NCBI GenBank assembly: GCA_963830935.1
Contig: CAWHOC010000005.1
Coordinates: forward strand, 1,839 to 65,838
Source of the DNA: an uncultured bacterium
GTDB taxonomy: Bacteria > Patescibacteriota > Minisyncoccia > UBA6257 > 2-01-FULL-56-20
Reading direction: 5' to 3'
Length of the DNA stretch: 64,000 bases
The notes under the pieces: model-generated
Seen by the model: the letters and a program-made list of their open reading frames with translations, nothing else
What the model was told of the DNA's origin: nothing
Database searches by the model: none
Part shown: positions 5,902 through 44,749 of the stretch, piece after piece
Position numbering within the stretch: position 1 is the stretch's first letter
How the letters are laid out: every line of letters starts with the position of its first letter
Program-made: the position numbers and the translations under genes

Positions 5902-5980
5902 TGTATATTGTTGATAAAATGGAGTCAAAAATAGAAAATGCCGCAGCATGCACTGCGGCATTTCGTGAAGCGCTTTTTCC

Positions 5981-6693: not shown

Positions 6694-6705
6694 CTAGAAA
6701 CTCCA

Positions 6706-10775: not shown

Positions 10776-10838
10776 GGGTATGGTCTATAAACTTACCTGA
10801 CCCGCAGGGTTGACGGTGATAGTGCGCGTGAGGTTCCG

Positions 10839-11416
10839 TCAGTGGTGCGGAGATACACGTTCGCCTCCTGCGGCGGATTCGTTCCCGCCCGGATCGCAAA
10901 TGCTTTGGAAGTCCGTCCCGTCAGTGCTCACGAGCGTGCACGGGTCGGGAGGATAGAACATGATGTATTGGATAGTAGCGCTCGCAACCGGGTCAGTAGA
11001 GCTCACGAGCACAACACCTTGTTGGGTCGCCACCTGCCAGCTTCCGGACTGATATTTTTGTATCGAGTTCGGGTCGATCGCTTGTGACGTGCTCGCGATG
11101 GAAGGGCAGATCGGCTTCGTCCCGAGGGCACGGTGCTCGTCGCGGAATCGTATGCAAACAGCGAGTACGAGGAGGTTGTGAAATCGAAACTGACCCCGTA
11201 TGCGCACGTGGTATCGTTCTGGCTGTACGTCGCGATGGAAAGCTCCCTCGCCTCAAGAATAAGCTGAGCTATCTTTGATTCCTCTATGGAAAGCGCTATC
11301 TGGTTCTGCCCCACATGGCTGTAGACGATGGCGAGCGTGGAGAGCACCGCCGTGATGGCGGCCACGATGAGTATCTCTATCAGCGTAAATCCTTTTTTAT
11401 TTGCTTTATCCGCCAT
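10839..11416 (-). CDS. prepilin-type minor pilin (FimT/GspH-like); frame broken near 11130
   Basis: N-terminus MADKANKKG/FTLIEILIVAAITAV. ORF 11003..11416 loses sense after about residue 95. The plausible C-terminus is in ORF 10839..11207. Confidence 0.65.
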
Positions 11417-11467: not shown

Positions 11468-12277
11468 TCACCGAATGCCGAGGATGGAAAAATACCAGCC
11501 GAGGATCGGTACACCCCAGAAGAACATCGCCGCGGCGCCGAGCGCGAGGAACGGCCCGAACGGCAAGGAGCTTCTCATACTGCTCTTGCCGCGCGCGATC
11601 GCGAAGACGCCGACCACGGCACCGATGATGAACGAGAATGCCAGCACAAAAATGATGTCGGGCCAGCCAAAGAGGAGCCCGAGCGGGATCGCAAGCTTAA
11701 GATCGCCCATGCCCATGCCTTTGCCGCGCGTGACAGCGATGAGGAGCGCGAAGAAAATGCCGGCGACCGCGCCGCCGATCAACGTGCTAAGCACCACACT
11801 TCCCTGCCAGCCGGGAACGATCGCGAGGAGGACACCGGCCACGGCGAGAAAGATATTGATCTCGTCCGGGATAATGCCCATCCTGATGTCTATCACGGAC
11901 ATCACGAGCAATGCCTCAAAGATGGCGACCCAGAGGGTTGCTTCGAGCGCAGGCGAAGTAGCCGTTGATGCTCCGGCAAACACTGCGAGCGGCACGAACA
12001 CAAAAATAAGACCGGATAATAGCTCCACGATCGGATACTGGATGTTCAGCCGCGCCTTGCACTCGCGGCACCGACCGCCTTGGATAAGAAAGCTCGCGAT
12101 CGGTATAAGCTCGAACCATTGCAGCGTCCTTTTGCAATGCATGCAATGCGACCGGCCGCCGATCGCCTTTGCGTCGAACAAAAAATGTTCGCCGTCATAG
12201 CGCAGCGTGACCACATTCAGAAAACTTCCGATCGCGACGCCAAAGACGAACAAAATAGCCAAGGCCAGCGGATCCAT
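11468..12277 (-). CDS. pilD: prepilin peptidase (A24 family)
   Basis: CMHC...CRECK zinc motif, GMGMGDLKL active-site region, polytopic membrane protein. Confidence 0.9.
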   Translation of the reverse strand: MDPLALAILFVFGVAIGSFLNVVTLRYDGEHFLFDAKAIGGRSHCMHCKRTLQWFELIPIASFLIQGGRCRECKARLNIQYPIVELLSGLIFVFVPLAVFAGASTATSPALEATLWVAIFEALLVMSVIDIRMGIIPDEINIFLAVAGVLLAIVPGWQGSVVLSTLIGGAVAGIFFALLIAVTRGKGMGMGDLKLAIPLGLLFGWPDIIFVLAFSFIIGAVVGVFAIARGKSSMRSSLPFGPFLALGAAAMFFWGVPILGWYFSILGIR

Positions 12278-12292
12278 ATACGTACTGATAAC

Positions 12293-12318
12293 AAAAAACC
12301 CGCCGAAGCGGGTTTTTT
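12293..12318 (-). terminator. bidirectional rho-independent terminator after the major pilin gene
   Basis: AAAAAACCCGC-cgaa-GCGGGTTTTTT. Confidence 0.8.
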
Positions 12319-12375
12319 GAAACTGTGTTCGCTCTCGTTAGAGCGAAACGCAGATCGTCGACGATGCGGCGCACG

Positions 12376-12855
12376 CTAATTTTCCGGGTTATCATCTTGC
12401 CCAGATCCAAAATCGGAAGGGGCGGTGTAAGTGCTAAAAACCGAATTGTTGGGATTTTCAAGCACTGTCTGTAACACGTAGGACGTCCCTGCGGCGTTTA
12501 TGGCGTAGGAATACTGATGGGGAGTAACATTCGATGGATCCACCGGAATGGAAGAGATACCGATACCCGCATTGATCGTCGATGTAGCCATATTACTATA
12601 TGCAGTTACATCGTCACCGCCGAGAGTGACCGCCCCACAGGTGGTACCGGCGGCACCGCCAGGATACACTCCGCACTTGTTGTAGTACAGCTCAAGCCCG
12701 TTCTGTACCTCACTGAGGTCGGAAAGCCTCCGCGCATCGCGTCCTGCCTGCTGGGTCGGGCCGAGGCCCACCAGCACGACCGACGCCAAAATGGCGATGA
12801 TCGCGACGACGATCAAGATTTCGATGAGGGTGAAGCCCTTTCTTGTGTTTTTCAT
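12376..12855 (-). CDS. pilA: type IV major pilin
   Basis: MKNTRKG/FTLIEILIVVAIIAILASVVLVGL prepilin signal. Likely start at 12855 (the ORF is open to 12900). Followed by a terminator. Confidence 0.8.
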   Translation of the reverse strand: MKNTRKGFTLIEILIVVAIIAILASVVLVGLGPTQQAGRDARRLSDLSEVQNGLELYYNKCGVYPGGAAGTTCGAVTLGGDDVTAYSNMATSTINAGIGISSIPVDPSNVTPHQYSYAINAAGTSYVLQTVLENPNNSVFSTYTAPSDFGSGQDDNPEN

Positions 12856-12917
12856 TTCTTCTTTAAATAGAAATCTTTCTCGACCTTTTGAATATTTCAA
12901 CCCTTTTATTATAGCAT

Positions 12918-14129
12918 TTAGTGGATATTCTCCGTGAGGCTGTAAATGGGGATAAGAATTGAGGCAAAAAGCAGGCCTACCATAAGGCCGATGCCGATCA
13001 TGAGCACCGGTTGGATGAGGTCCACCAGGTTATTGGTGACCTCGTCCGCCTCGCGGGTATAGATGTTGGAAAGGCGGGTGAACATTTCCTCTATCTTACC
13101 GGTCGTCTCCCCCACCGCCACCATCTGCGACACGAGCGGCGCGAAGAACTCCGGCCGCTTGGCGATGCTCGCCGAAAGGAGCGATCCCTGCCGCACGTCC
13201 TCGGCGATGTCGTGCACCACGTCGCGGTACAAACTGTTCCCCACCATGTGCCCGATGATCTCGAGCGCCTGTGCGATCGGAATGCCGCCGTGCACGAGGA
13301 GCGCCGCCGAGTTGCCGAAGCGCGCCATGATGACGGGTAGATATACTTTCTTGACGATCGGAAGACGGATCTTCGCCTCATCGAGCAGGGCCTCCCCTTC
13401 GTCCGTCTGCGCATAGTTGATAACGACCGCGCCGAGCACGATGACGGCGATGATCACTGCGATCCACCACGCGTGGAGGAAATTCCCCGTGTCCAAAAGC
13501 ACCTGTGTGTACCACGGAAGGGAAACCCCGTTCTCCGCGAACACGGCGCCGAGCGACGGATAGACAAATGTGATAAGGATAAACGCGACAACAATGAAAA
13601 GGCCGACGACGATGCCCGGATAGACGAGCGCCGACGCGGCCTTGCTCGCAAGGTCGCCTTCTTTTTCCGTATAGTCGGCGAGGAACGACGCGACCTCGTT
13701 CAAGTTTCCGGTGACCTCCGCCGCACGCACCATCTCTATGTAATAATCCGGGAATATCTTGCCCTGGCGCGCCATCGCCTGCGAAAAGGTGATGCCCGCG
13801 TCGATGTCCTCCGTCACCTGCGAGATCCCGAGCTTCAAGTTCGCGTTCGTCGTCTGCTCATACAGGATCTTGAGCGCGTTGTTCAACGGAAGCCGCGCCT
13901 CGAGCAGTGTCGCGAGCTGGCGCGTGAACACGACAAGGTCTTTGCGCCCCACGCGGTTGAAGAACCCGGCGATGTTATCGAACGCGCTCGGCGGCCGGTC
14001 GGCAACAACGCTCAGCACGAAAAGGTCGTGGCTCGAAAGGATCGCGCTCGCGGCGTCGCGATCCGAGGCCTCCACGAATCCCACTTGCGTCGCCCCTTCT
14101 TTTGTCTTGGCCTGATATTTGAATTTCAT
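12918..14129 (-). CDS. pilC: type IV pilus platform protein (GspF family)
   Basis: 403 aa with two GspF-type repeats, three TM segments and typical PilC spacing. Confidence 0.9.
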   Translation of the reverse strand: MKFKYQAKTKEGATQVGFVEASDRDAASAILSSHDLFVLSVVADRPPSAFDNIAGFFNRVGRKDLVVFTRQLATLLEARLPLNNALKILYEQTTNANLKLGISQVTEDIDAGITFSQAMARQGKIFPDYYIEMVRAAEVTGNLNEVASFLADYTEKEGDLASKAASALVYPGIVVGLFIVVAFILITFVYPSLGAVFAENGVSLPWYTQVLLDTGNFLHAWWIAVIIAVIVLGAVVINYAQTDEGEALLDEAKIRLPIVKKVYLPVIMARFGNSAALLVHGGIPIAQALEIIGHMVGNSLYRDVVHDIAEDVRQGSLLSASIAKRPEFFAPLVSQMVAVGETTGKIEEMFTRLSNIYTREADEVTNNLVDLIQPVLMIGIGLMVGLLFASILIPIYSLTENIH

Positions 14130-14132
14130 GCG

Positions 14133-15206
14133 CTATGTGCGCTCCAGCAATATGCGGAGCTCCGATGGGTTCAGCGAATACAGTTCCGCGTTCTCCTGCG
14201 TGATCTCCTTGTTCTTGATGAGGTTCACGAGCGAGCGGTTGAGCGTCACCATGCCTTCCTGCAAACTCGTTTCGATGACGAGGTCGATCTGATACGTTTT
14301 GCGTTCGCGGATCAGGTTGCGGATGGCGGGATTCACGATCATGATCTCCATCGCGGGAATGCGACCGCCCGAGACGCGCGGGAGCAACCGGATCGAGACG
14401 ATTGCGACGAGCGTGGCGGCGAGCTGTGACGTCACCTGCCCCTGCTGGTCAGCCGGGAACGAGTCGATGATGCGGTCGATCGTCTGCGACGCGGAATTGG
14501 TGTGCAGCGTGGAGACCACAAGGTGGCCCGTCTCGGAAGCGGTCATGGCGGTGCCGATCGAAACACCGTCGCGCATCTCGCCGATCATCACGACGTCCGG
14601 GTCCTGGCGAAGCACCGTGCGGAGCGCAGAATGGAAACTCGTGGCGTCGCTGCCCACTTCACGCTGGGAGACGATGCACTTGTCCTGCGTGAAAAGATAT
14701 TCCACCGGGTCTTCGATCGTAATGATGTGGTCGGTGCGCGTGTGATTGATCTCATCCACGATCGCCGCGAGCGTGGATGACTTGCCGTGCCCGGCGGGAC
14801 CGACGACGAGCACGAACCCTTGCGAGAGCTGGGCGAAATCGTGCAGGAGCGGCGGAAGATTCAGCTCCTCGATCGTCTTGATGCGCGTAGGGATGAGGCG
14901 CATCGCCGCCGCGAGGTAGCCGCGCTGAAAATAGACGTTCACGCGGAAGCGCGCTTTCTCCTCCAAGCTGTACGCGAAGTCCACCTGCCGCTGAGTGATG
15001 AGCTTCGCTTTCTGCTCCGGCGTCAGCAATTCCGAGATGATCCCCTCCGCCGATTCCGGCGTCATGATCGGTTCCTTCTGGAGCGGCACGAGCACGCCGT
15101 CGATGCGCAGCGTCGGCCGCCGGCCCACCGCGAGGTGAAGGTCCGACGCATTCTGCTTCGCCGTCGTCGTCAAAAGATCGTTGAGCTGCTGCTTAAAGTC
15201 GTCCAT
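14133..15206 (-). CDS. pilT: type IV pilus retraction ATPase
   Basis: Walker A GPAGHGKSST, IGEMRD, GHLVVSTLHTNSA. 357 aa and intact. Confidence 0.9.
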   Translation of the reverse strand: MDDFKQQLNDLLTTTAKQNASDLHLAVGRRPTLRIDGVLVPLQKEPIMTPESAEGIISELLTPEQKAKLITQRQVDFAYSLEEKARFRVNVYFQRGYLAAAMRLIPTRIKTIEELNLPPLLHDFAQLSQGFVLVVGPAGHGKSSTLAAIVDEINHTRTDHIITIEDPVEYLFTQDKCIVSQREVGSDATSFHSALRTVLRQDPDVVMIGEMRDGVSIGTAMTASETGHLVVSTLHTNSASQTIDRIIDSFPADQQGQVTSQLAATLVAIVSIRLLPRVSGGRIPAMEIMIVNPAIRNLIRERKTYQIDLVIETSLQEGMVTLNRSLVNLIKNKEITQENAELYSLNPSELRILLERT

Positions 15207-15298
15207 ATGGTTATATTACCACACTGCGTTTCTATCCCCAAAATAAGCAAGACCGACATTTTAAATCTTTTTAATCTGCCATTTCACATAATGGCGGG

Positions 15299-15676
15299 AT
15301 GGAGCAACAGAAAGCCAAGGATATTTATTTTAGTATTGGGCACGCATGGTGTCCCGCCCTTGGCGATTACGTTGCGTTTAGCAGCAAGGGATTCCGCCAT
15401 CTCATAAGAAAACGCGGATTATCACGCTCCCAAAACGAACAATTGAGGCGTCTTTCTCTCATTGCTTACGCCAAACAGATCGTCGAAAATTCTAAGCTAG
15501 TAGCGTCTCATCGTGTCGAGAACAGCAATCGCATCGTTTATTCCCACGATAACAAGAGAAGAGAAACCGCGCGGATCGATTTTTGGTCGCTTAAGGCAAA
15601 TAAAAACGGAAGGGTTATAACTGTAGTAATACGACAATCATCGGGAGGCACAAAACACTTTCTCAGCATATTTTGA
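15299..15676 (+). CDS. hypothetical protein inserted antisense between pilT and pilB
   Basis: 125 aa ORF, visibly AT-richer than its neighbours. CATAAT lies 6 nt before the ATG and a terminator follows. The KGFRHLIRKRG segment is only weakly reminiscent of small nuclease families. Confidence 0.5.
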   Translation: MEQQKAKDIYFSIGHAWCPALGDYVAFSSKGFRHLIRKRGLSRSQNEQLRRLSLIAYAKQIVENSKLVASHRVENSNRIVYSHDNKRRETARIDFWSLKANKNGRVITVVIRQSSGGTKHFLSIF

Positions 15677-15689
15677 TAAACGATAAAAA

Positions 15690-15720
15690 ATCGCCCCATA
15701 GTAATGGGACGATCTTTTTT
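15690..15720 (+). terminator. rho-independent terminator
   Basis: ATCGCCCCA-tagtaa-TGGGACGAT (8 of 9 bp) followed by CTTTTTT. Confidence 0.7.
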
Positions 15721-15850
15721 ATGCCCGCTATCAGCCGTAAGCCGATCAGGAACAGGGGCTGCCGACGTTCCCTACGGGCATGCCTTCATCATACGAAGGC
15801 AAAAAATAAAGTCAAACAAAAGTTAATAAATTTTTAATCTTTTATTCCTT

Positions 15851-17566
15851 CTATGCCTCTTCCGTTTCTCTAATGATCTCCTCTATAGAAACCACTCCCT
15901 TCAGCGCTTTCACGATACCGTCCTGGCGAAGCGTGATCATCCCCTGCTTTTTGGCCAGTTCCGTGATCTTCTGCGTGGTAACGCCGGTGGTCATCACTTC
16001 CTCGAGCTCCTTGGTGATCGAGCAGCGCTTCATAAATGCCGGTTCGTCCGAGATGCCGCGGCCCTTGCAGGTGGCGCATCCTTTCGCATGATAGATCTGG
16101 TACGGCGGCGGAATTGCGACGATCACCGCGGTCGGCAGGCCTTCGAGCGCCGTCTTGATGGTCTTCTGCACTTCGGGAACGGCTTCTTCGGGCTTTTTGC
16201 AGTCCGGGCAAGAATGCCCACAAGGCGCTGGGCGATGATCAGATTGAGTGACACGGCAAAAGAAACGGCTCCACTTTGAGGTCGATGAGGCGCGGGATGA
16301 CGCCGGCGCGTTGTTCGTGTGCAATGTGGAAAGCACGACGTGCCCCGTGAGCGCCGCCTGCACGGCAAGCCCGGCGGTCTCGTCGTCGCGGATCTCGCCG
16401 ACCATGATGATGTCCGGGTCCTGCCGCAAGATCTGCCGCAATCCCGACGCGAAGTCGTATCCGATCTCCGGCCGCACCTGCGACTGGTTGATGCCCGCCA
16501 CAAAATATTCCACCGGATCTTCGAGCGAAACGATGTTCACGTCTTCGGTGTTAAGGTTTGCAAAAATGCGTAGAGCGTCGTCGTCTTTCCGGAACCGGTC
16601 GGGCCGGTGATGAGCACCATGCCGAACGGCTTGTCAAGTCCTTCCTTGATGGTCTCGCGGGTTGGGATCAAGCGGTCAAGATTCTCAAAACTCTTGAGTC
16701 CGGTCGTGGGATCGAGCACGCGGATCACGATCTTTTCGCCGAGCGGCGTCGGGAACGTGGCGACGCGGAAGTCGATGTCGCGGTCGAACAGCTTCGCGCG
16801 GAAACGGCCGTCCTGCGGCACGCGTGTTCTCGTCGATCTTCAGATTGGAAATGACCTTGATGCGGGACGTGATCGGCTGGGCAAGCTCCTCCGGCATCGA
16901 CGCGACCTCGTGGAGATCGCCGTCGAGGCGCAAACGGATGCGCAACGATTTCTGCTGCGGCTCGATATGCACGTCCGACGCTTTGTTCAGCACCGCTTCC
17001 TTGAACGTGTCGGCGACGATCTTGATGATCGGCGCGTCCGCGCTGTCGCCGCCCTCAAGCTCGATCACCTGCTGGCCGCCCGATCCCTCTTTGACATTCA
17101 GCGATCGCACCGCCGACTCGATCTCCGCGCGATACGGGGAATATTTTTTGAGCGCCGCCTGCAGGTCGTCGTACGAAATGAGATAGACGCCAAGATTGAT
17201 ATGATTCTGCCGCGCGATGAACTTCATCGCGTCCTGCGCCTTCGAGTCGTCGGGGTGCAGCATGCCGATGACGAGCAGCCCGTCCTGCATGCTGATCGGG
17301 ACTGGTATGATAGGTGCGCGCGGTCTCTTCGGGCACGATGCCCATCAGCTTCGCGTCGAGGGCGTCGGGTCTATTTTTTTATACGGAACTTTGAGCAGCT
17401 CGCTCTTGAGCGCCGCCATCTGTTCGTCGGGAACGATCCGCTCGCGCCCGATGATGTCCTCCGGTGATTCGCCGCTCACGATCGCATCACGCTTGAGTCG
17501 CGTCGCGACGATCTCCGTGATCAATCCCCGGCTCTGCAGTTGTTGGAGAAGCTCGTCGTTCGTCAT
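15851..17566 (-). pseudogene. pilB: type IV pilus assembly ATPase PilB (GspE family), broken by about 7 frame shifts
   Basis: Fragments 17345..17566 (N-terminus), 16685..17290, 16537..16821 (Walker [11 protein letters not shown]) and 15851..16540 ([18 protein letters not shown]...CATCKGRG). Within 16200-16330 the sense sequence runs through all three frames: LHTNNA / [16 protein letters not shown] / [16 protein letters not shown] / CPDCKK. Confidence 0.85.
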
Positions 17567-17572
17567 ATCTAT

Positions 17573-17581
17573 ATTCTACCA
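17573..17581 (-). promoter_or_regulatory. extended -10 (TGgTAGAAT) 6 nt upstream of the pilB ATG
   Basis: The minus strand reads GTGGTAGAATATAGATATG. No Shine-Dalgarno between the box and the ATG. Confidence 0.45.
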
Positions 17582-17613
17582 CGCCGAATGAAAATATTCC
17601 AAAAGATACATAC

Positions 17614-17717
17614 ACAAGAAATACACGCACAGAAGGATTCCGGAGGCGCGAAGGCGCCGAGGCTTAGCGCGTTTTCAGCAGAAAACGACGCGGCCCTTCT
17701 GTGCGTGTATTTCTTGT
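17614..17717. other. long hairpin H1: 23-bp perfect arms around a 58-nt GC-rich two-hairpin module (same module as in H6)
   Basis: Arms ACAAGAAATACACGCACAGAAGG and CCTTCTGTGCGTGTATTTCTTGT. The interior holds GGAGGCGCGAAGGCGCCGAG and GCGCGTTTTCAGCAGAAAACGACGC. Confidence 0.7.
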
Positions 17718-17723
17718 ATTTGG

Positions 17724-18022
17724 TTAGGGGGCGATGAAGGGATTTGGACGTCCCACCGGTGCGGGGCCCGGGGGTCGGCAGCGGCAACGGTGGAGGTAAG
17801 CGTCAGGAATGCGGTGCTCTGCGTCACGGTGTCCGGCTGGACCGCGTTTTGGGCGATCGGAGCGATCATCCCCAGGTTGCCGCTCGCGGGAATAACAACG
17901 AGCTGTGGCTGGGCAAAGAATATATAGTAGACGGCGGCGGCGGCGATGGCCAAAAATACCACCCATCCTATGATGCCAAGCAGGTTCGTCTTTTTTTCTC
18001 CTTCGTCAACAATGATCGCCAT
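17724..18022 (-). CDS. small membrane-anchored pilus-operon protein with a C-terminal GRPNPF tail; frame broken near 17775
   Basis: N-terminal TM LLGIIGWVVFLAIAAAAVYYIFF in ORF 17675..18022. The plausible end PPGPAPVGRPNPFIAP is in ORF 17724..17966. The shift falls in a CCCCCGGGCCCC run. Confidence 0.45.
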
Positions 18023-18034
18023 GGTATTTTTTGT

Positions 18035-18641
18035 TTATGGGGCTTGATAATAGGTTACGACCGTCATGGTGTAATTAAACATGTCCGGGTTCGCCGCCTG
18101 GGTCTTTGTGGCCTGGATCGCATCGGACGAAAGCGATATCGAGTTCGCATCGAATATCCGGATGTTCGTCGCGAGCCCCATGAGAAAATTCTTGATGGAT
18201 TCGTAACTGCCCGATCCGGAGATCTGGAAGGAGACCGTTCCCGTGGGCTTGATGATCGATCCGGCGCCGCCGACGGAGGGAAGGCGCGACCGCCTGCACC
18301 GCCTGCGTTGAGATCCCCGTCGCCGTGACGGTGACGCCGGTATTCGCCGCGATGCCGTACACCTGCGCCAGGGCGCCGGATACATCCGGCCCGACCGGAA
18401 GCGCAAAGGCGACCGTTTGGCTTGAAGAAGCATCGCTCTCGTACGTGGTATACAAACTGTTCACGTCGTTCGCAAGCACTGACTGGTTCGCATACGCCGC
18501 GGCTTCGCTCTCCGTCTGTCCCTTAAGATCTTCGATGCTCGCGTACGCCGGGACGATGAACTCGAAGTAGACCACCAATGCCGCGGCGATGATCAGTGCC
18601 GCGATGATGATGCTGGAGAGACGTTTTGATTCCTGTTTCAT
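18035..18641 (-). CDS. pilO: PilO-like pilus assembly protein; frame broken near 18290
   Basis: N-terminal TM plus coiled coil (ORF 18075..18641). C-terminal domain GTVSFQISGSGSYESIKNFLMGLATNIRIFD in ORF 18035..18433. Confidence 0.6.
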
Positions 18642-18642
18642 A

Positions 18643-19210
18643 TTATTGGGTTGATGGCGACGCTAAAAATACCGACGGCTGCATGACGAGGACCGCGTTG
18701 AACGTCCATCCGCCGCCGGCGAGCCCCGGCGCGGCGACATTCGAAATGGTCAGCGATGAGACCTCGGGAGCGTTCTCAAAAATGGCGACTTGTTGGTTCA
18801 CATCGGCCTCAGTGGCGGCAATACCCCCGAGATTGACCTGATGTCCCGACGCAAGGGAAAACGATTGAAAATAGACGTTCGCCTCGGTGTTCTTCTCGAG
18901 CCATGAGAAGAATTTCGGCATGCTCACGTGGTTTTGCAAAAGTGACTGGAGATTCACGATCTGCGAATAATAATCGATCAGCGCGGCTTGTTTGCTCGCG
19001 GGGATGGACTGGTCCAACACGTTCATTTTATTTTGCTCGGTCGTAAGCTGTGACTTCAAATACGGCTCATAGCCGAACGAAAGCCCAACATAGATGATGA
19101 TCGCGAGAAAAAGAAGGCCGCCGGCGAAACATCAACGCGCCAGGCGCCCATCCCTGCGTGCCGGTGGGCTCCCGCCCCAATTGCTCTATCACTTTTTCTG
19201 GAAGAGGCAT
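18643..19210 (-). CDS. pilN: PilN-like pilus assembly protein; frame broken near 19135
   Basis: MPLPEKVIEQL... followed by TM FAGGLLFLAIIIYVGLSFGY in another frame, joining ORF 18643..19059. Position between pilM and pilO. Confidence 0.55.
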
Positions 19211-19246
19211 TGACCTAGTTACTGGTAATTGATTACTGGCGGTGGG

Positions 19247-20325
19247 TTATTTACTGAACTGCTTGATCCCGAGGCCGAGCGCGACGGTCATCGGCGCCTG
19301 AAGTTCCGGAAGGAACGGCGCGATCACGTCCGGATACTCGAATTTTGAAAATGGCGATGCTTTTACGACCGGGATGCCGAACCCTTTTTCGAAATATTTC
19401 TCTATTCCGGAAAGGTTCGCGCCGCCCCCGCAAAGGACGATCCGTTCGGTCTTTGCCGCCATAGGAAACTGCTGACGGAACGTGTATTCCGCCTTCTTCA
19501 CCTCATTAACTATAACATCCAAAAACGGCATCATGATAGTGGATAACTCGTAATTCGGGCCGGTGCCGAGGATCCCCGCTCCTTCTTGAGCTCCTCCGCG
19601 CGCATCGGATTGATCCCCAAGCTCGTCGCAAGCGCGGTTGTGAGGGAGAACGCGGCGATGTCGCTCTGCGTGCTCCACGCGAGCACTCCTTTCTCCATGA
19701 AGATGATGTTCGTGGAGCGGGAGCCGATGTCCACGATGGTCGTCGCCGTCGGATCGCCGGCGAAGATCCGCGCGATGGAGAGCGACTCGATCTCGAGCGC
19801 GCGCAGGCGCAATCCCGCCGTGGTGAACATGTGTTGATATTTTTTGATCTGCTCCTGCGGAACGGAGATCAATAATATTTTCTGGTGTGCGAATCCTTTC
19901 TCGTCCTGATAGTCGGCGACCTTCATCCAGTCGAGCGCCACCTCCGAGAGCGGCATCGGCACATATTGCTTTGCCTGATACACGAGCGCCTTCGCAATGT
20001 CCTTCGCCTCCATCGCGGGAAAGTCGACGATCGTCATAAAAACGTCGAACGGCGGCAGGGACGCGATGGCGTCCTTCGTCGATGTGCCCATCTGCTGGAT
20101 GAGCGCCTTCAGAAGCCGCACCGCGTCATCTTCGAATATCTTGAGGCCGCTCGTCTGTAACGCCTGGTTGGCGCGCGCAAGATAGCCGCTCGATTCCAGC
20201 ATGCCATAGTTCACGACCCTCGGGGCTTTTTTGCCCCCGGTCACCTCCACCATTTTAATGGAAGTCGTGCCGATATCGACGCCAAGGTACGATTCGGCTT
20301 TTAAAAATGAGAACGGATTGTTCAT
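19247..20325 (-). CDS. pilM: PilM (actin-like ATPase fold) pilus assembly protein; frame broken near 19580
   Basis: YLGVDIGTTSIKMVEV in the N-terminal part (19531..20325). C-terminal RIVLCGGGANLSGIEKYFEKGFGIPV in 19247..19678. Confidence 0.8.
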
Positions 20326-26184: not shown

Positions 26185-26261
26185 CCCGCTCCACGCAGGA
26201 AAAACCCTTCGCCGAACGGTCATCTGCCTGGAGGCGAAGGGTTTTTCCTGCGTGGAGCGGG
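26185..26261. other. hairpin H2: 29-bp perfect arms, 19-nt loop GAACGGTCATCTGCCTGGA
   Basis: CCCGCTCCACGCAGGAAAAACCCTTCGCC pairs with GGCGAAGGGTTTTTCCTGCGTGGAGCGGG. The core matches H3 at 29 of 31 nt. Confidence 0.75.
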
Positions 26262-26393
26262 TAAGGGGAGTCGGACCCCTGTCGTCTGATTGGCAACCAG
26301 ATGTAATACCGTTATACGATACCCGCTTTACGGATTCATTATATAGAGCTTCGCAAAAAAATCAACGCCGCCGGACAAAAGAACTTGTCGCGA

Positions 26394-27408
26394 CTATTGC
26401 ACGCCTTCAGCCTGCTGATACGCCGCAGCCGAGATGTCCGCGATCGCCTTTTCCTGCGCCGCGATGCTCGTGGTCCCCTTCGTCATTACGCACAACAGGT
26501 AGGGATGCGCCGGGGGCATAGACGATCCGCAATCGTGCAGTTCCCACTGGTACGGCACACCATTCGAAAGATACGAAGCCAAGCCATATTTATGCGCCAC
26601 CGCCGTGGAGCTCGGTACGCCAGCCACGATCCCCTGCGTGAAGGTCGTCTGCGTCAACAGCGCGAGCGCTTTTTCCGAATCATCGCGTGAGAGGTATGTG
26701 GCATTGTAAAGAGTCTTGAACAGGATGGCGTATTGCTGTGGCGTCATGATATCGCTCGTTGAAGCCGTCACGTCGGGGTCGGTCGGAATATCGAGATCGG
26801 AATACACTGCTTGCACTCCTTGTTGCTCGGCCGGGGTCGCAAGCGTGGTGAGCACGTCCGCCGCGTCGTTGTCGGAATATTTGATCATGTACTCGATGAG
26901 TTGCTCGTTCGTATATTCCTGGCCGGGCGTGATACTGCTCGTCGGCGGGATTTCCTGTTGGGTATTGAGATTGGGACTTTCCGCCGGATAGCTATTTTCT
27001 TCCTCTAAAATACTGCTCGTGTTCTCGGCCATCGCGTAATACGCCATCATGATCGGCACCTTCCCCAGGCTCGACGGATAATATTTTTCATCGCCGTTTA
27101 TGCTCGCCCATTGTCCGGTCGTAAAATCGGAAAAATAAACCGACGCGTCAGTGATATCCCCCGCGCTCTTGTCTTGCGAGATCGCCGACTGTATTGCATT
27201 GCAACGGACTGATCCTGAGAAACGTCTTCACACTGCCCAGATTACAACTTATGAGCGGGCTGATGTACTGATATCCCCCAAGCCGCAGCGGCGGCGGGAT
27301 GGTGATGACGGTGGTTACCTTGTTAAGCAGCCACCCGAGACCAAAGCTCCCCGCGCAGGCGAGGATCGCAATAGCCCAATACACTCGTGTTCTGTTCGAT
27401 CTTCCCAT
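26394..27408 (-). CDS. class-A beta-lactamase-like serine hydrolase; frame broken near 27150
   Basis: SxxK (SLGK, just upstream of ORF 26394..27059), SDN (YSDND) and K-Y-G triads. N-terminal TM in ORF 27148..27408. Confidence 0.65.
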
Positions 27409-27472
27409 CCTTCTATATTACTAAATACGCCTCGAGTACGCATCTTGGTGCCTACTTACCCTTTCCAGCCCG

Positions 27473-28303: not shown

Positions 28304-28938
28304 ATGCTCGATGTTAACATTGGAGTTATTGTTATCGCCATCACCGCACTCGGATATGTAAGCAATTTTCTGAACTGGCGATTTTTGGATTATGCCCCGA
28401 TCCGTGCACTGTATTACGTTGGCGCCCTCGTGCACGAGACATCGCACGCCATCGCATGCATTCTGACCGGTGCACGGATCGAACAATTTACGGTTTTTTC
28501 AAACCAGCCGCAAGTCGTCCACCGCAAATCACGCCTGCCGATCCTGGGGGAACTCATCATCTCCGCCGCGCCGATTGCCGGAGGGCTACTCTTTTTATTT
28601 TTAGTGAACCGTTATGCGCTGGGTACTATTTTACGGTCCCATCATTCGGTGCGGTTTATGGATGGAAAATATTCCTTCTTGTCCCGTTTGGACTGCTGTC
28701 GCAAATCAATCTGCTTCAATGGCAAAGCTGGGTGATGATCTTTCTATCATTTAACTCTGGAGCTATGCTCGGTCCGTCAATGCAAGACCTGAAGAACGTC
28801 TGGCCTATGCTTATAGTGTTGCTTTTTTTCCAATCTCCGACAATTACTGAATTCGGGGCTGCCACGATAATTATGATCATCGTGAACATAATGATCCAGG
28901 CTATTGCCATAATCGGCGTGCAAATAACGAAACATTGA
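28304..28938 (+). CDS. polytopic membrane HExxH metalloprotease-like protein (M50B-like); frame broken near 28620
   Basis: HETSHA motif inside a TM region. ORFs 28304..28735 and 28456..28938 join. TATAAT lies 8 nt before the ATG. Confidence 0.5.
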
Positions 28939-29002
28939 TAGGGAATAAAAATTTGACAACAAATAGATATATTAATATAATATCACATAGAGGTGATGTA
29001 TC

Positions 29003-29359
29003 ATGAAATGGTTCGTGTTGTTCGCTGGGATCGTTCTTTTATCGCCTCCGACTGCCGACAGTCAGCCCGTCGATAGTCCGTGCGCAGGGAAAGCGGGCAT
29101 TGAATCTATTCCGCCCGAAATTCGGAAAGAGTTTCGGCAGGCACAGATGGACCGGGATCTCCAAGAGTCGATTCGAAAAGAAATTGAGATCGCCAACCGA
29201 CCCAGATCAGGCCTGAAGCTTACGATGGCCACGACTGACAGGGATGGAAGAATCGTTGACTATCGAATCATCGTGGCTTCCGCTCCGGGGTGCGTACTAG
29301 GGTGGATGCCTATCAATCCACCTGCAAACGCCAAACAACGGAGTCGTGTGTACTACTGA
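29003..29359 (+). CDS. small secreted hypothetical protein
   Basis: Signal peptide MKWFVLFAGIVLLSPPTADS. AGAGGTGA Shine-Dalgarno. Confidence 0.5.
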   Translation: MKWFVLFAGIVLLSPPTADSQPVDSPCAGKAGIESIPPEIRKEFRQAQMDRDLQESIRKEIEIANRPRSGLKLTMATTDRDGRIVDYRIIVASAPGCVLGWMPINPPANAKQRSRVYY

Positions 29360-29436
29360 TACCTTTCATATATCACTTTGGAAGGTATCTTTTTTATGTC
29401 TTATAACAACACTATGCGCGTCGCGCTATTGACCGC

Positions 29437-32400
29437 TCACAGCGACTTTAAGAGTGTGCCAAGTTCGTCGAATAACCCCTCAAGCGAACGGGATATAATC
29501 GCTGTTTGATCAACCGATTCCGCAGACGACGATCGGCTATTCGCGGCGAGCGACGAACCCGGGACGCTGACTGCGGATGTGCTATCATCACCGCCGCAGC
29601 TCGGATCCTGCGGGTAGAAATCGCAATAATCAGAGCAGTCAGGGGTTGGATCAATATCGCATGCATCCGTTGAATTCGAAGCGCCGCTGCACACGGGATC
29701 TTGTGCATTCAGCGAACAATAATCCTGGCATGCGGTGCCGGAGGGATCGCTCGCGCAGGAAGTGCTCGTCGCACACGTCGGATCGTCGGGAGTTTGATTA
29801 CAATAATCTTCTTCGATGTTGGCGGGTGCGTCCGGACACACTGGATTGTTTGGGTATAAGTTACAATCTACGATACAACTTCCATCCGCCCCCTGTATCA
29901 GGCCGGCGCCGCATGTTCCCTGGCACGCGCCTGTTGGCATCGCGAGCGAGCTGCCGTCCGGATTGACGCAGCTTACCGTACCGTCGCTCCCACACGAACA
30001 ATCGCTTCCATCGGGGTAGGTACACTGCATTACTCCTTGGGCATTCGGAGTGCATGTCTGATTTGTCGCCGACGGGCATTCCGGGCTCGCAACCGGATCG
30101 TCGGGGTTGCACTCGTCTGTCGGGGGAGGAGGCGGGGTTATTGGAGCATAAGTTTCGGGAGCGGAGCGTACATTTATATGGACTCCCGTTTGCGTCCAGA
30201 CATGTGCCTTGGGGAACGGTTACCGGACAGGAATACTGACCGCTTTGCCCGCAATTCACCGGCGCACAGGTATAATTATTTCCATAGTTGTCGGTACAAT
30301 AACCAGGAGTCGTGCCGTCGTTAGTCGGAGTATAATTGTCCACAATTGTTGCAGATGTCGTCGCATTCGGCATCCTGCACCCGCCGAGCGCCGTCGGATC
30401 GTTGATCCAACCACTATCAAGCTCGTCCGCCGTGCACTGTCCGACGATACTCCAAGTGTTATCCATGAAGACAACAGGGGCAGTCCCGGAAGGAGGATAC
30501 CATGGACTCGTGGCAAGAGGAGCTCCGGTCCCGACGCAACCAACGGAAGAAAGTGGAAGAGCCTGCTTCTGCTGGATCGCCTTTATAGTATTGTAAATAT
30601 TCTGAGCAATGGGGATCGGACCGTTGTTTCCTCCTCCTTGCATGGGTGAGTTTGTATTGCCATAGTCATCCCCGAGACCGAATATGCCATGACCCAACTC
30701 GTGTTCATCCGTACCTGCAGCGTTCAAGCTCGTAAGGGCTGCTCCCGTTGGCCAAAACTGTGTATTGAACATATCAACAACCACAGATTTGCCAGCGTTC
30801 AAAGCGTTCACGATTGCCGAAGCGGTTCCCGCAGGAACGTATTGGGAATAGCCGGAGTAGCCGGATTGAGCGATAGTGGTGGATAGATATACCGTCTGCG
30901 CGGCGAATTCATCCTGCTCGCTTACCGATACCCCATTCACTATGGTGTTGTTTTGTCCATCCGGTATGTTTCCTGCGCTCAGCACGACGAGTGCTCCGGC
31001 ATCCGAATTGTCTGTTGGTACCGGCAGCACCCCAGCTGTGTCGGCCTGATAATAGGGAGAAAGTCCATTGATGACGACGTTGATTATTTCATCCTGAGCG
31101 GCTTCGGGAGTGGTCGATCCCCAATTGATATTGTTGGGATTCGTCATTGAAGGATCCACGATGATATTGAAATCGGTCGATATGTGAGGAATGGTACCGT
31201 CGGGGCTAACCAAGACGGGGATTGCAATTCCTGCGGCGGATCCCGTGGTGCCAGGGGCTTGCACGGAGCACTGGCCGCCGTTGTTCGCCGGTGCTCCGGT
31301 CACCGCCTGGTCCGCAAGGCCGAAGTAGATTGCGACTTTTCCATTTTCAGACGCCATTCCAGAAATCTCGCCGAGCGCGTCAGTGGTCTCGGTAATCTGA
31401 TATCCGGCTTGCCCTAAAGCGTTTGCAATATAGTTTATAAACTGGATCGGGGTATTCCCACCAAGCACGTTCACCAAAGTACCATCCACACCAGCGGCAA
31501 TCGATGATTGGTGATATGGCGCAGTAGCAAGAAGCGACGATGGATTGTACGCGACCACCGCGTAATTTGACCCAGTAGTATATGATGTGTCAGTAAAGCT
31601 CGTAGCAGAGGTCGTGGCAATTTGTGTACCGTCACGATACACCTGATAAAGAATTTCATTCCCCGGATCTGCGTAGGTCTCTGTCAATGGATTCGCGGAA
31701 GCGGTCCATGAAAGCGACATTTTTGACGACCCGACGTTCGTGATGGTGAAATCTCCCGGAGGGGTGGGGCCGCCCCATGTGGAGCTGGTAATAGTCACTT
31801 GCAATTGCGGGGATACAAGGCCAACCACTCCGACTGCATTCACTGGCGCGACGCAGTAATAATACGTGCCTAAAGGAACGTTGACATCGGCATAGCCGTC
31901 AAGGACGTGGCCAACATCGTTGGGCACACCCGTCATAACAAGATCTGCGGGAGTCGCAGCGCACCCCGAAGTCGTGGTCCGATACAGATTCCATGTCAGA
32001 GACTGATATTGTTCATCCGTACTCTCATACCAATTCATTTCCGCAGAATCCCCTACCGTTATCGCATAAAGATTCGAGACGGGAACGACGGTTTCCGGGT
32101 TCGAAAAAGCGCTACCGGTGATCTGAGAGGCCCACGGGAGAACCGAAAGATATCCATCAATGATTTGGTAGAGTGGCATATTTTCGGTGTTCGCATCGTA
32201 AGGAACAATATAGCTTGGCAAAACAGAACCAGTGTAGGTCGTTGTGGCTACAACTCCGATTTCTGCCGGTTGCAGCAACCCATTAACGTAGGTGGATGAG
32301 CCAAAAATTTCGTACCCAAGGATGCCTGATGCATCGACGGAAGGGCTCCATGTGAGAGTGATGCTTGAGAGAGTATTATTCGTTTCCTCGATATTGCCGA

Positions 32401-33052
32401 TGAGCGATGGGGTGTTGCCGACAGTGGTGATGGTCGCCTCTATGGGTGCGGTAACAGGGCCGTAATAGGGGGACGTCCCTTGATCCAGCGCGTCGGCACA
32501 ATAATAGTAAGTACCCGGAGAGAGATTTTTGTCAGACAACATAGGATAATCGTCCTTAGGGAACCATGATCCCACAGAGACCGAGCTCACACTGCAGTCC
32601 GGGGAAAGAGATCTATAAAATATATATGTTAAATTAGTTCCATTGAGACCGTTCAAGGGCGCAGACTCACCAGTCGAAAAGCTTACGGTATTACCGGAAA
32701 CCGAAATGGAAAATCCGGTTACCGGACCAGGCGCTGGATAGGCGGATGCGGTGATAGGGAGCGACTCGGATGACGCCCCTGCGGAATTGTAGGCGACGAC
32801 ATAATAGACATACGGCACAGCTTCCTGCTGACCATTGCCGCCAGGAAGAGGCTGATATTCCTCAAGCCCAGTGTCCGTGAACGACGTCTGCGTGGTAGTG
32901 CTCACTTCGACGTTATCTCGATAGACGCCGTAATATGTCGCGGAGATACTGCTCGTGGACACTTGCCATGTGAGGGAAATCGACGAAGCGGTACCTCCAA
33001 CAGCCTGAAGATTTATCGGAGGTAATAATGAAGAAGAAATAAGTGGCGTCAA
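29437..33052 (-). CDS. giant surface protein: FN3 repeats, M64-like HExxH metallopeptidase motif and a Cys-rich C-terminus; frame broken near 30020
   Basis: Several FN3-like units (SSISLTWQ...YGVYRD..., MSLSWTAS...YQVYRDG). DEHELGHGIFGLGDDYG resembles the HEFGHxxxGLxDEY motif of peptidase M64. The C-terminal ORF 29437..30030 is rich in CxxxDP motifs. No signal peptide on the 33052 TTG start. Confidence 0.65.
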
Positions 33053-34725: not shown

Positions 34726-34822
34726 CAACACTCTGTCCTTGCCTTCTTCGCCCCTTCGTCGCATTGTAGCGACCAGCAAGGACGCTCTGGACTCGTCCCA
34801 CCGTTGCGTCATCAATTGTAGT

Positions 34823-36159
34823 ATGACCAACCAAATTAAGGGGTCGGCAGGAGCGGCGACCTCAACCAATCAACCGCTGCCGGTAAAGGTCGCATATTGC
34901 TTGTATGCAAGAAAATCAACGGAATCAGAGGAGCAGCAAGTCCTTTCGATAGACAGCCAGATCAAGGAGATGATCCAGATCGCCGAGCGGGATGGGCTCA
35001 CGATCGCGGAGATCCGGAAGGAATCCCATTCAGCAAAAGCCGTCGGCCAGCGCGAGGTGTTCAATGAGCTCCTGAAAGACATCCGCTCCGGCAAATTCAA
35101 CGGCATCCTCACCTGGGCACCGGATCGCTTTCGAGAAATGCTGGTGACCTCGGAGCTCGTGGACCTCATGGATCAGAAGGCGCTCGTGGAGATACGGACC
35201 TTCTCCCAGAAATTCACCAACAACCCAAGCGAGAAATTCATGCTGATGATCCTGTGCTCTACGGCAAAACTGGAAAATGACAACAAGTCGGAAAATGTGA
35301 AGCGGGGCCTCCGGACGCGGTGCGAACAAGGGTTCGCCCCAGCATGGCCCCGACTGGATATCTGAACGAGAAGCGAAAGGACAAACCGTGCGAAGTGATC
35401 GTTGATCCGCAGCGAGCGCCCGTGATCAAGCAGATGTTCGAGAAGGTGGCGAACGAGCAATGGTCGGGGCGGAAGCTCTACGCATGGCTGCGGCACGATG
35501 TGAAATTCAAGACCGCCACGGAAAAATTCCTTGCGCTCGGAAATATCTATATGCTTCTCAAAAAGACTTTCTACTATGGCGTCTTTGAATACCCGGTCGG
35601 ATCGGGAAACTGGTACACGGGGCAACATACGCCCATCATCACAAAAGAGCTATATGACCGAGTGCAGGAACAACTCGTCCGGAGCGAGATAAATAAGAAC
35701 AATAAGGAGTTCGCCTTTACGAAGCTCATATCATGCGGGGTCTGCGGATCGGGCGTCACGGCGTGCGAGAAGTACAAAGACCAGCAGAACGGAGACGTGC
35801 ATCGCTACGTATACTACCGCTGCACGAAAGCGAAAGATCCTCACTGTCCAGAGGGGTATATCAAGGAGGAAGAAATCATCGAACAGATCCTGAAGATCCT
35901 TGATACGCTCGACATCAGCGAACTCGGCATCAGGCAGAAATTCAAGGATGAGATATCGCGATACAACAAATTCCGAAGGATCGCTCTGGGCAAGAGCCGG
36001 GAGAAATCTGACCCAGAGGAATTCGATGCCAAATCGTATGCCGTCTATCTCCTGACCGAAGGATCGATTGCAGAAAAGCGTGAGCTGCTATCCAACCTTA
36101 AGAGCAGACTGATCCTCAAGGATAGAGTGGTCACGATAGAAGCCGGAGCGGAAAAATAA
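34823..36159 (+). pseudogene. large serine recombinase, decayed
   Basis: Resolvase N-domain YARKSTESEEQQVLSIDSQ. The recombinase/zinc-ribbon part lies in ORF 35320..36159, with a frame break near 35335. The expected DRLSRNAGDLGA motif is only readable in an alternative frame across about 35124-35160; the in-frame text is DRFREMLVTSE. Confidence 0.7.
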
Positions 36160-36969: not shown

Positions 36970-36975
36970 AAACGC

Positions 36976-37078: not shown

Positions 37079-37547
37079 CTAGAATCTCAGGAATTTTTCA
37101 ATGGAATCGACGAGGGTCGGCTGGTGCTCGATCTCTTTGAGCACCAGCTTCAGGTTCGCGCGGATCTCCGCCACTTTCGGCGCCGGCACAATAAGCGAGA
37201 GCGCCGGCCGGATGCGCGAGCGGAAATAGAACGACCACATCCGCCCATTCCCCGTCGTCCAGGTCCGCGCTCCAGCTCTCGAACTCCTTCATGGAGTATG
37301 ACTTGTATCCCCCGATATTGAGCTCGGTGTCCGTCAGCGTAAACGTGAGCGTTCTCGGCGCCTTGTTCCCCCACACGATGAAAAGCATTTCCGCGATCAC
37401 AATGAAAAAGCCGAATAGAAAATCTTTCTGCCACACCGAGAACGCGATGATGAGCGCGGCAGCGATGATGGAGATCCAATACCACGAGACCTCCTTCTCG
37501 CGATACTCGAATTCCGGCGCCTCCCATGTTGTTTCGAACTTTGCCAT
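37079..37547 (-). CDS. two-TM membrane protein; frame broken near 37240
   Basis: ORF 37098..37547 has WYWISIIAAALIIAF and FLFGFFIVIAEMLFIVW. The plausible C-terminus FYFRSRIRPALSLIVPAPKVAEIRANLKLVLKEIEHQPTLVDSIEKFLRF lies in another frame and ends at 37079. Confidence 0.5.
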
Positions 37548-43200: not shown

Positions 43201-43596
43201 AGGACCAAAGTAACCAACCGAAGGGGTGATGCCGTTCGCTGCCTGGAATTTTCCGAGCGCTGCTTGCGTCAGCGCGCCGAAGTATTCGGTCGGAGTGGCG
43301 AGACCGCCGTGAGATATCCTTGTTGAATCAAAAACTTCTGGAGGGCCGTGACTGCGCGCCTGTGGAACCAACGGTGAGGTCGCTGGTAAAGTCATAGGTC
43401 GTGCGCCGACCGAGGGCCGCCAGAAGCATTCAATTGGACTCTGGAGTGTCTGGATCTGGGCGAGCAAAGCCGCGATCTGAGCCTGAAGGCTCGACGTGGT
43501 CTGTGCGCTTGCCACAGGTACCAGCGCAGCTGCTCCTACCATCCACAATACTGTGGTGGCGGTGAGTGCCGCTGAAACCAATTTTTTAGAATTCAT
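40251..43596 (-). pseudogene. large surface-layer-like protein (signal peptide, coiled coil, PG-binding-like segment, repeated beta-sandwich modules), at least 8 frame breaks
   Basis: N-terminus MNSKKLVSAALTATTVLWMVGAAALVPVASAQ...LQAQIAALLAQIQTLQ. The fragment GALTQAALGKFQAANGITPSVGYFGPKTRAFIN is present. Repeated modules (MDGSTQLG...SVTLDVYANIS) are spread over ORFs 42569..42973, 41916..42572, 41318..41980 and 40705..41034. The 3' limit is uncertain. Confidence 0.6.
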
Positions 43597-44037: not shown

Positions 44038-44710
44038 TTACCCCGCCTCCGGCATCTCGGCCATCACGTTCGCGCGGTAGAAAACCGACGGCCCGGCATT
44101 GCCGATCCGCTCGATAAGGCCCTGCTCAAGGAGCGTCTGGAGATCGTAGCGGATGGTCCGCTCGCTCGTATTCGGCAAAACATCCTGTATTTCCTTCAAC
44201 CGGCAATTGCCGGATTGCCGGATTCGCTCCAGTATCATATTTTGCCGGATTGCCGAATCGTTTGCCGATTGCCGGATTGCCGGATTCGCGCTCAAGCGTC
44301 GCTGCGGGCATCGTCATAGAAACCATGGCGGGCGCCACCTCTGCCGAATGCTCGGCAATCTCCGGCTTGGAGAATATTTCCGCAACGCTGACCTCGTCCG
44401 TCTTGACCGCCGCCTTCCGCTCCACTATTGCTGCATCAAGCGCGTAGATCTCCCGCATCATCACTTCCACGTTGGGGCTGCCGATCATGCCCACGTCTCC
44501 CCCGAACTTGACGAGACATTCCGTCACGCGGAGCGGGCGTTCTGTGGCGGCATAATCCTCCGCCGCCGCGGCGGCGAGGAGCGCCGTGCCGGACGCCCGG
44601 AGCGATTCGGCAAAGTCCTTTTCCTGCATCCGCTCCGCCAAACGGAATACTGCGTAGACGACCTCGTATGTTTTCGTGAGGATAAAGCGCTCTTTGCCGG
44701 TCTCTTTCAT
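44038..44710 (-). CDS. regulator with a C-terminal DeoR-type winged-helix HTH; frame broken inside an 8-nt tandem repeat at 44271-44286
   Basis: ORF 44126..44746 holds the N-terminal helical domain, with start MKETGKERF at 44710. ORF 44038..44295 holds ILERIRQSGNCRLKEIQDVLPNTSERTIRYDLQTLLEQGLIERIG. The junction lies in ATCCGGCA repeats that encode NPAIRQ. Confidence 0.65.
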
Positions 44711-44711
44711 A

Positions 44712-44746
44712 TGCCGGATTATAATCCGGCAATCCGGCAATTGCAA
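44712..44746 (-). promoter_or_regulatory. promoter TTGCAA-17-TATAAT whose spacer and -10 are built from the TTGCCGGA octamer; 20-bp perfect palindrome over the -10
   Basis: The minus strand reads TTGCAATTGCCGGATTGCCGGATTATAATCCGGCATATG. The palindrome TGCCGGATTATAATCCGGCA is at 44712-44731. TATAAT lies 7 nt before the ATG. Confidence 0.6.
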
Positions 44747-44749
44747 GGT

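Follow-up and report, generated by a model that had tools for sequence, protein, structure and literature searches.

Frame breaks in a 64-kb Patescibacteriota contig stretch are very probably residual assembly indels, concentrated where co-existing strains differ

Many genes in the 64,000-nucleotide stretch of metagenomic DNA analysed here (the window) are interrupted by frame breaks, and taken as a whole these are very probably indels left behind in the consensus of a noisy metagenome assembly, which cluster in places where co-existing strains have diverged. The two halves of this reading differ in strength: that the breaks are assembly artefacts and not mutations of the organism is close to certain, and strain variation is the probable cause of their clustering. 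The frame breaks are no new biological feature. An earlier note on this DNA, made from the sequence alone, had put their number at about 35; the abundance stands, but the count was too low, the verified total being at least 57 (with 1–6.8 kb, which is without a usable reference, left out). The breaks are spread very unevenly, with an index of dispersion that is 3.96 for 1-kb bins and 6.5 for 2-kb bins (p ~1e-24 to 1e-27). The pilB gene has nine breaks vs. 1.5 expected (p=3e-5), or 5.2/kb, and a large surface-protein gene has 23 vs. 3.0 expected (p=2e-13), or about 7/kb. Outside these two genes the rate is only 0.42/kb, and with so low a background the complete lack of breaks in clpB or thyX is unremarkable. 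The suspicion that such clustering is at odds with uniform error is borne out by the strong over-dispersion (index 4–6.5), and the clusters coincide with strain-variable tracts.

The interval that had been flagged (15851..17566, minus strand) is, judged by its expected domains, its Walker A motif and its pilus neighbourhood, pilB, which is predicted to encode the type IV pilus extension ATPase of the GspE/PilB family. To call breaks, the DNA was aligned in a frameshift-aware manner to the protein of an intact 572-aa orthologue (P0001), which is carried by a 3.5-kb JGI contig (L001) that matches window positions 18042..14578 at 95.5% nucleotide identity. This gave nine single-base indels, comprising six deletions (17364, 16556, 16308, 16252, 16211 and 16053) and three insertions (17303, 16828 and 16019). 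Base-level alignment to L001 and the frameshift-aware alignment are concordant on all nine uncompensated indels, and a more distant reference contig (L002) returns the identical nine sites; beyond these, two pairs of indels (16673/16667 and 16119/16110) compensate each other at close range. Heavy damage to pilB had thus been recognised correctly by the earlier count of about seven, the number of which has to be raised to nine, and the placing of three breaks within 16200–16330 was exact (the 1-nt deletions at 16308, 16252 and 16211). A further break noted in a CCCCCGGGCCCC run near 17775 is also real; it consists of a 2-nt deletion at 17766 and a 1-nt insertion at 17785, and it lies not in pilB but in the 99-aa gene upstream (17727..18022, minus strand; the deletion is in a C5G3C4 run), which has these two breaks. 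The pilB frame switches among all three reading frames, and the raw open reading frames hold successive slices of the Pfam domain T2SSE (4–75, 77–168, 172–250 and onward). Once stitched, the 575-aa protein matches T2SSE from position 4 to 370 of 370 in one stretch (E=7e-123) and MshEN over 2–86 of 90, has the Walker A motif GPTGSGKTT and contains no in-frame stops. A search with the stitched protein listed 120 homologues from Candidatus Paceibacterota (CPR), all of them uninterrupted and 548–577 aa long (mostly 572–575). The top match is P0001 at 95% identity, named PilB by JGI, followed by P0002–P0006 at 90%, and pilB is also uninterrupted in the 14 contigs that carry P0004. The surrounding gene order (pilM, pilN-like, pilO-like, the 99-aa gene, pilB, pilT, pilC, pilA, pilD and then pseudopilins) is syntenic with that of eight related contigs (L002–L009). 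As a separate observation, the order of the pilB frame shifts is, on a rough and uncomputed reckoning, not unusual for a random walk.

What kind of event produces the breaks can be judged from 35 single-base events that are resolved to the nucleotide, 17 insertions and 18 deletions. The runs in which they lie (21 of length 1, 10 of length 2 and only 2 of length 5) equal the background, and a homopolymer-type error, as for Nanopore, 454 or IonTorrent data, was rejected on the grounds that 31 of the 35 indels fall in runs of one or two bases. GC content and repeats were likewise discarded as causes of the hot spots, being equal in hot and intact genes; self-comparison of the window showed pilB and the surface gene to be free of repeats, and no common motif, for example a methylation site, was seen by eye at the nine pilB indels. 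These features also bear on the idea that the breaks are read through by recoding, either programmed ribosomal frameshifting or transcriptional slippage, or that they are phase-variation switches. Such a reading would fit only the presence of +/-1 shifts in otherwise well conserved genes, and it would have to accommodate nine sites in a single gene, none in a slippery or repeat context, and a shift common to none of the 120 listed orthologues. In addition, the Walker A motif of pilB falls within out-of-frame sequence, and stops occur in the out-of-frame segments. We regard recoding as so improbable that it can be set aside. A compensatory return to frame within pilB, by frame-restoring pairs and a triple of indels, was considered too, and was rejected because of the same stops and the same position of the Walker A motif in out-of-frame sequence.

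Breaks of the same type, at lower density, are found along much of the window. Reference proteins for about 41 kb were taken from syntenic short-read contigs (L002–L009 for 6.9–26.4 kb, L010 for 37–58 kb) and from a long-read metagenome-assembled genome (MAG), L017. Within the pilus region, the pilO-like, pilN-like and pilM genes (18038..20325, minus strand) have one break each, at 18278, 19129 and 19571, and a pseudopilin gene (10788..11401, minus strand) has three (11130, 10880 and 10833) relative to a 206-aa orthologue in L002. The polynucleotide phosphorylase gene pnp (59304..61599, minus strand) has three breaks, near 61128, 60132 and 59826; four HSPs to the PNPase of another contig (L058) lie in differing frames, and the Pfam domains RNase_PH, PNPase, RNase_PH and RNase_PH_C are spread across four open reading frames. 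Single breaks are present in ftsK (53366..55619, plus strand; ~54212), a HAD-family hydrolase (52550..53318, minus strand; ~53165–53180), a gene of ~230–290 aa (44056..44749, minus strand; ~44302), an anti-sigma-like gene and a 155-aa gene (37082..37547, minus strand) with an extra base at 37235. A cysteine desulfurase of the Aminotran_5 family (sufS; 50111..51351, minus strand) has two breaks, caused by extra bases at 50583 and 50621, and a large serine recombinase (34739..36159, plus strand) has at least one, at ~35340. Four breaks (27218, 27201, 26524 and 26508) lie in a beta-lactamase-like gene (26406..27414, minus strand), for which the L017 orthologue is the sole reference. Finally, two genes within 28304..33052 have one break each: a G is missing at 28626 in an M50B-like peptidase, and one is in excess at 30166 in a 1286-aa fn3/RGI-lyase-like gene. 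Alignment found no frame breaks in clpB (46043..48694, minus strand), in pilD, pilA, pilC and pilT (11468..15206, minus strand), or in thyX, tmk, dcd, recA and the AAA ATPase of the window; clpB and the four pilus genes serve as intact controls. The catalogue of affected genes in the earlier note (at least three breaks in pnp; ftsK, the cysteine desulfurase, pilM/N/O, the hydrolase and the recombinase also hit) was therefore accurate, as was its list of unaffected ones (clpB, pilT-pilC-pilA-pilD, recA, thyX and the AAA ATPase).

Evidence for assembly artefacts comes from other assemblies of the same population, which we traced by exact-protein look-ups with intact window proteins; look-ups with PilT, PilC, RecA and ThyX had no match. 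These are Logan contigs from runs ERR11523672 and ERR11630400, JGI contigs from sample 3300055138, and two ENA assemblies with contigs named in the "contig_N" style, ERZ25039540 contig_10826 (335 kb) and ERZ25039472 contig_42325. Two of the Logan contigs match the window at 100% identity along 1.6 kb each, and the remaining ones are 99.4–99.8% identical; contig_10826 and contig_42325 are identical to it over stretches of 1–5 kb. Outside the surface gene, 23 break sites are covered by another assembly, and in all 23 cases that assembly has an indel relative to the window at the site or within about 15 nt. L001 contradicts 11 of the 23 (nine in pilB and two in the 99-aa gene). Logan/JGI contigs that are otherwise 99–100% identical contradict 28626, 30166, 37235, 50583 and 50621, and contig_10826 contradicts 19129, 19571, 21993, 35340, 44302, 54212 and 53165. 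For example, the breaks at 28626 and 30166 are isolated in otherwise identical sequence, and three contigs (L110, L111 and L109) have intact open reading frames there, without these indels; the extra base at 37235 is absent from L103, L102 and L109, and neither of the extra bases in the cysteine desulfurase is present in L107, L105 or L106. In ftsK an extra base at 54214 is absent from contig_10826, which also differs from the window by indels at 19125 and 19574 in the pilM/pilN/pilO region. The pilB insertion at 16018–16019 is missing not only from L001 but also from an otherwise identical k-mer contig (L112). Logan/JGI contigs thus carry intact open reading frames where the window lacks a G (28626) or has extra bases (30166, 37235, 50583, 50621 and 16018). 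In principle, the contigs used as references might belong to sister strains with intact genes.

The long-read-style assemblies are themselves broken, in different genes. The clpB gene, with no breaks in the window, has 12 in contig_10826 and 10 in contig_42325. In contig_10826 there are nine breaks in ftsK, three in thyX and four each in tmk, dcd and sigma70, vs. none or one in each of these in the window, and sufS has two breaks in the window, none in contig_10826 and four in a further assembly. Breaks that shift from gene to gene among assemblies of one population, including in thyX, ftsK and clpB, are errors and not biology. Two checks proposed at the outset, frameshift-aware alignment to orthologues and comparison with a second assembly, therefore point the same way: the former confirms the breaks, with nine in pilB, and in the latter other assemblies differ by an indel at 23 of 23 covered sites. 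The original reading of the breaks as assembly indels is upheld by the absence of the window indels from independent contigs at these 23 sites, and by the different sets of broken genes in the other long-read-style assemblies.

The position of the clusters is informative about their cause. Over 14.2 kb for which independent near-identical contigs are available, non-3n indels in 200-bp bins occur at 0.33/kb in bins without mismatches vs. 6.9–9.2/kb in bins with mismatches (Spearman rho 0.66, p=4e-10; permutation p=5e-5). Real strain differences, or alignment effects beside gaps, could account for part of this association. The hot tracts diverge by 4–10%, and the differences are real, mostly synonymous and allelic. 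Compared with contig_10826 the window is a mosaic, identical over 28–33, 38.5–40 and 49–50 kb and 6–10% different over 40–48.9 kb and 35–36.5 kb; the recombinase break lies in one of the tracts that diverge from contig_10826. The differences between the two in clpB are 80% third-position, and they are therefore real alleles. In addition, short-read/k-mer contigs end at the borders of the tracts (16049, 40203/40229, 27525, 33271, 50835 and 14578), as expected from a branching assembly graph.

The hottest locus is the large surface-protein gene (40251..43596, minus strand), which encodes a signal peptide followed by an S/T/N/G-rich body. At least eight breaks had been reported here; we count about 23, a number that ranges from 15 to 26 with the frameshift penalty. 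In six short-read contigs the gene is a single intact open reading frame of 1089–1130 aa. Three long-read-style assemblies (contig_10826, L017 and the window itself) cover it, and each has 23–27 breaks in it, mostly at differing positions; the breaks of L017 are restricted almost entirely to this gene. Between the window and contig_10826, 31% of the surface-gene codons differ, with non-synonymous changes exceeding synonymous ones, and the flanks are about 100% identical. A metagenome scan with the stitched protein found relatives at 70–77% amino-acid identity and none above 77%, so that its indels are not placeable at the nucleotide level. Every near-identical copy is likewise broken, and the gene stands outside the site-by-site assembly test. 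Shared, real breaks in this gene were considered as well; by a rough estimate about 5 of 24 break positions coincide between the window and contig_10826 vs. ~3.5 by chance, which gives them no support.

These data suggest how the pattern may have arisen. A low background of about 0.3–0.4 breaks/kb is present everywhere, with short hot tracts of 5–9/kb on top of it. The hot tracts would be loci where co-existing strains carry different alleles: pilB (~1.9 kb, 4% from an otherwise identical relative), the surface gene, and smaller ones in the cysteine desulfurase and the recombinase. Where two or more haplotypes are piled on one collapsed contig, or the chosen haplotype is thinly read, polishing may leave read-level indels in place, and failure of polishing would keep the consensus in hot tracts near raw-read quality. 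The local low coverage suggested in the earlier note is compatible with this. The platform behind the window assembly was most likely a long-read one, and the background of ~0.4/kb points to overall coverage that was modest. The MAG L017 belongs to the Microflora Danica project, which used Nanopore R10.4.1 reads, Flye and one Medaka polishing round (PMC12313526), and a near-finished R10.4 consensus requires about 40x coverage (PMC9262707). Assembly errors could also be clustered for a purely technical reason, such as a local drop in coverage, a single-read stretch at a graph junction or a failed polishing window. The density of 4–10/kb in hot tracts (pilB and the surface gene in the window, clpB and ftsK in contig_10826), which is near raw-read indel rates, would be expected from such failures, and the isolated breaks at 28626 and 30166 do lie in tracts with 100% identity to other assemblies. 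However, the hot tracts match real, mostly synonymous allelic divergence and the ends of k-mer contigs, and the surface gene is a hot spot in each of the three independent long-read-style assemblies, a coincidence that random local failure would not repeat. We therefore consider a purely technical origin of the clusters unlikely and prefer strain variation as their cause. That the hot spots are in turn genuine hot spots of microdiversity, with a ~1.9-kb pilB allele exchanged by recombination and an extremely fast-evolving surface gene, we would call an even bet.

The pilB cluster deserves separate consideration, because genuine decay of this gene had been offered as an alternative. The strain-variable tract that holds the cluster spans 16006..17900, extending beyond pilB through the intergenic sequence upstream and on to the neighbouring gene. 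The window and L001 differ by one mismatch in 14800–15999 and by none in 17900–18042, vs. 76 mismatches and 13 gap columns in pilB itself (15851–17566, 1716 bp), all of them above 16000; the divergence persists to about 17900, and L112 stops at 16049. The indels also cross the gene boundary, into the intergenic region and the 99-aa gene (17.6–17.8 kb). A pseudogene cannot outpace the divergence of its neutral flanks, and since pilB has diverged by 76 mismatches between flanks that are near-identical to L001, neutral decay in place is excluded. When the changes are polarised with L002, those specific to L001 comprise 28 synonymous and 1 non-synonymous, and those specific to the window 23 synonymous and 22 non-synonymous. 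The 21 amino-acid differences of the window PilB are at variable positions and are mostly residues that are common in 119 homologues (for example, K73 in 81, I232 in 84 and S207 in 77 of the 119). Only L298R and D300I are never seen in the homologues, and both lie at a compensated indel pair; save for these two, the stitched pilB has none of the signs of a pseudogene that were looked for (replacements at conserved sites, in-frame stops, larger deletions).

It could still be argued that assembly errors form a background and that pilB, possibly together with the surface gene, is in addition a true pseudogene, either decayed in place or imported as an already decayed allele. The nine breaks vs. 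1.5 expected and the 22 non-synonymous changes of the window lineage vs. 1 in L001 are in line with this, and an import by recombination is conceivable given that the tract is a distinct allele. Against it, besides the L001-identical flanks that exclude decay in place and the ordinary nature of the replacements, stands the ratio of 13 indel columns to ~45 lineage-specific substitutions, which by our own estimate is far above natural ratios. Moreover, the cluster runs past pilB, the insertion at 16018 is missing from an otherwise identical contig, and like clusters are present in clpB, thyX and ftsK of the sister assemblies. Pseudogenes are hence very unlikely, and genuine decay of pilB is contradicted by flanks identical to L001, by replacements that are common in homologues and by a cluster that extends past the gene boundary. 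To judge from its substitutions, the pilB tract is instead a genuine, functional-looking alternative allele with technical indels superimposed.

For users of these assemblies, the result is in the first place a quality flag. Gene calls on the window contig and on its sister long-read contigs would give dozens of false pseudogenes, including PilB, PNPase, FtsK and a cysteine desulfurase, and any conclusion on gene loss or metabolism in this CPR lineage would be wrong unless the contigs were first annotated in a frameshift-aware way or re-polished. As a by-product, the error clusters are non-random and point to variable loci, namely the pilB allele and the hypervariable surface protein. If this is true, the pilus motor and the main surface protein each occur in several co-existing alleles, as would fit diversifying selection by hosts or phages, and loci of microdiversity could be sought in long-read MAGs by their clustered consensus indels.

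The window can be compared with four kinds of known system. In programmed frameshifting (prfB, dnaX) and in phase-variable loci, there is a +/-1 shift inside a conserved open reading frame as here; such genes have one conserved site each, at a slippery sequence or simple repeat, whereas the window has 9–23 sites per gene, with no repeat context and no conservation. Pseudogenes of reduced or symbiotic genomes resemble the window in having several frameshifts in one gene beside intact neighbours, but in the window there is neither relaxed selection nor large deletions, and independent copies are without the indels. Residual indel errors of long-read assemblies are measured by IDEEL-type tests for truncated proteins and addressed by proovframe. 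Those of long-read metagenomes (Nanopore or PacBio CLR) share with the window +/-1 breaks in conserved, essential genes whose short-read orthologues are intact, and breaks that differ between assemblies of one organism; unlike in such data, the classic Nanopore signature of long homopolymers is absent in the window, and the errors concentrate in strain-variable tracts. Small-indel frameshifts are known to hinder gene prediction on long reads (bioRxiv 10.1101/2021.08.23.457338). Finally, in haplotype collapse during metagenome assembly, a comparison limited by the fact that the alleles here are seen in assemblies from different samples, we find these features in common with the window: allelic tracts of 4–10% divergence embedded in identical sequence, de Bruijn contigs that end at their borders, and an indel rate more than 20-fold higher inside the tracts.

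Independent short-read and k-mer contigs from the same population end at window positions 14578, 16049, 27525, 33271, 40203-40229 and 50835, and these coordinates coincide with the borders of the divergent, frameshift-rich tracts of the window. This is as expected if the assembly graph of the population branches at these points.

The window carries an insertion of ~9.5 kb (27420-36970) that adjoins a tRNA-Arg gene (36897-36969); a tRNA-Gly gene lies at 26253-26326. The insertion encodes a large serine recombinase (34739-36159), together with a 1286-aa fn3/RGI-lyase-like protein, an M50B-like peptidase and a 506-aa protein, and looks like an integrative element. It is present in the long-read-style assembly contig_10826 and in Logan contigs, all from the same population, and is absent from the three relatives compared, i.e. 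the syntenic short-read contigs L002 and L010 and the long-read MAG L017. The spacer between pilB and pilT (645 bp; 15207-15850) contains a plus-strand ORF of 125 aa (15299-15676) with a weak LPD3 match. An identical copy of this ORF-containing spacer is found in L001, a JGI contig of 3.5 kb, and in the k-mer contig L112, while the corresponding spacer in L002 measures only 100 bp.

Near the start of the window, a minus-strand gene for an AbiEii-family nucleotidyltransferase toxin (4578-5291) and the overlapping ORF upstream of it (5281-5961) likely constitute a type IV toxin-antitoxin pair, and a similar gene pair occurs in L049. Same-strand overlapping ORF pairs and a triple at 1860-4497 and 5981-6706 (625 + 277 aa; 142 + 112 + 97 aa) may hide further frame breaks; these ORFs were left out of the break count because they have no reference or Pfam match. 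At the other end of the window, the 517-aa ORF listed at 62437-63990 carries an S15 domain in its last 80 residues and is just rpsO with a long spurious upstream extension. An NYN-domain gene (61745-62437) is located between rpsO and pnp.

The surface-protein gene at 40251-43596 is hypervariable: a comparison of the window with contig_10826 shows differences in 31% of its codons (191 non-synonymous vs. 130 synonymous), whereas the flanks are ~100% identical, and the protein shares just 70-77% amino acid identity with any relative, compared to 92-94% for ClpB. Judged by eye from the translation stitched across frames, the N-terminal part appears to comprise a signal peptide and, after it, two repeats similar to a peptidoglycan-binding domain. 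The orthologous gene in L017 (15141-18611; MFD01223.bin.1.73), a public MAG that serves as GTDB species representative, has ~22-27 frame breaks, whereas the remaining 19 kb of this locus is almost free of them, so that a reference genome is affected by the same problem of annotation.
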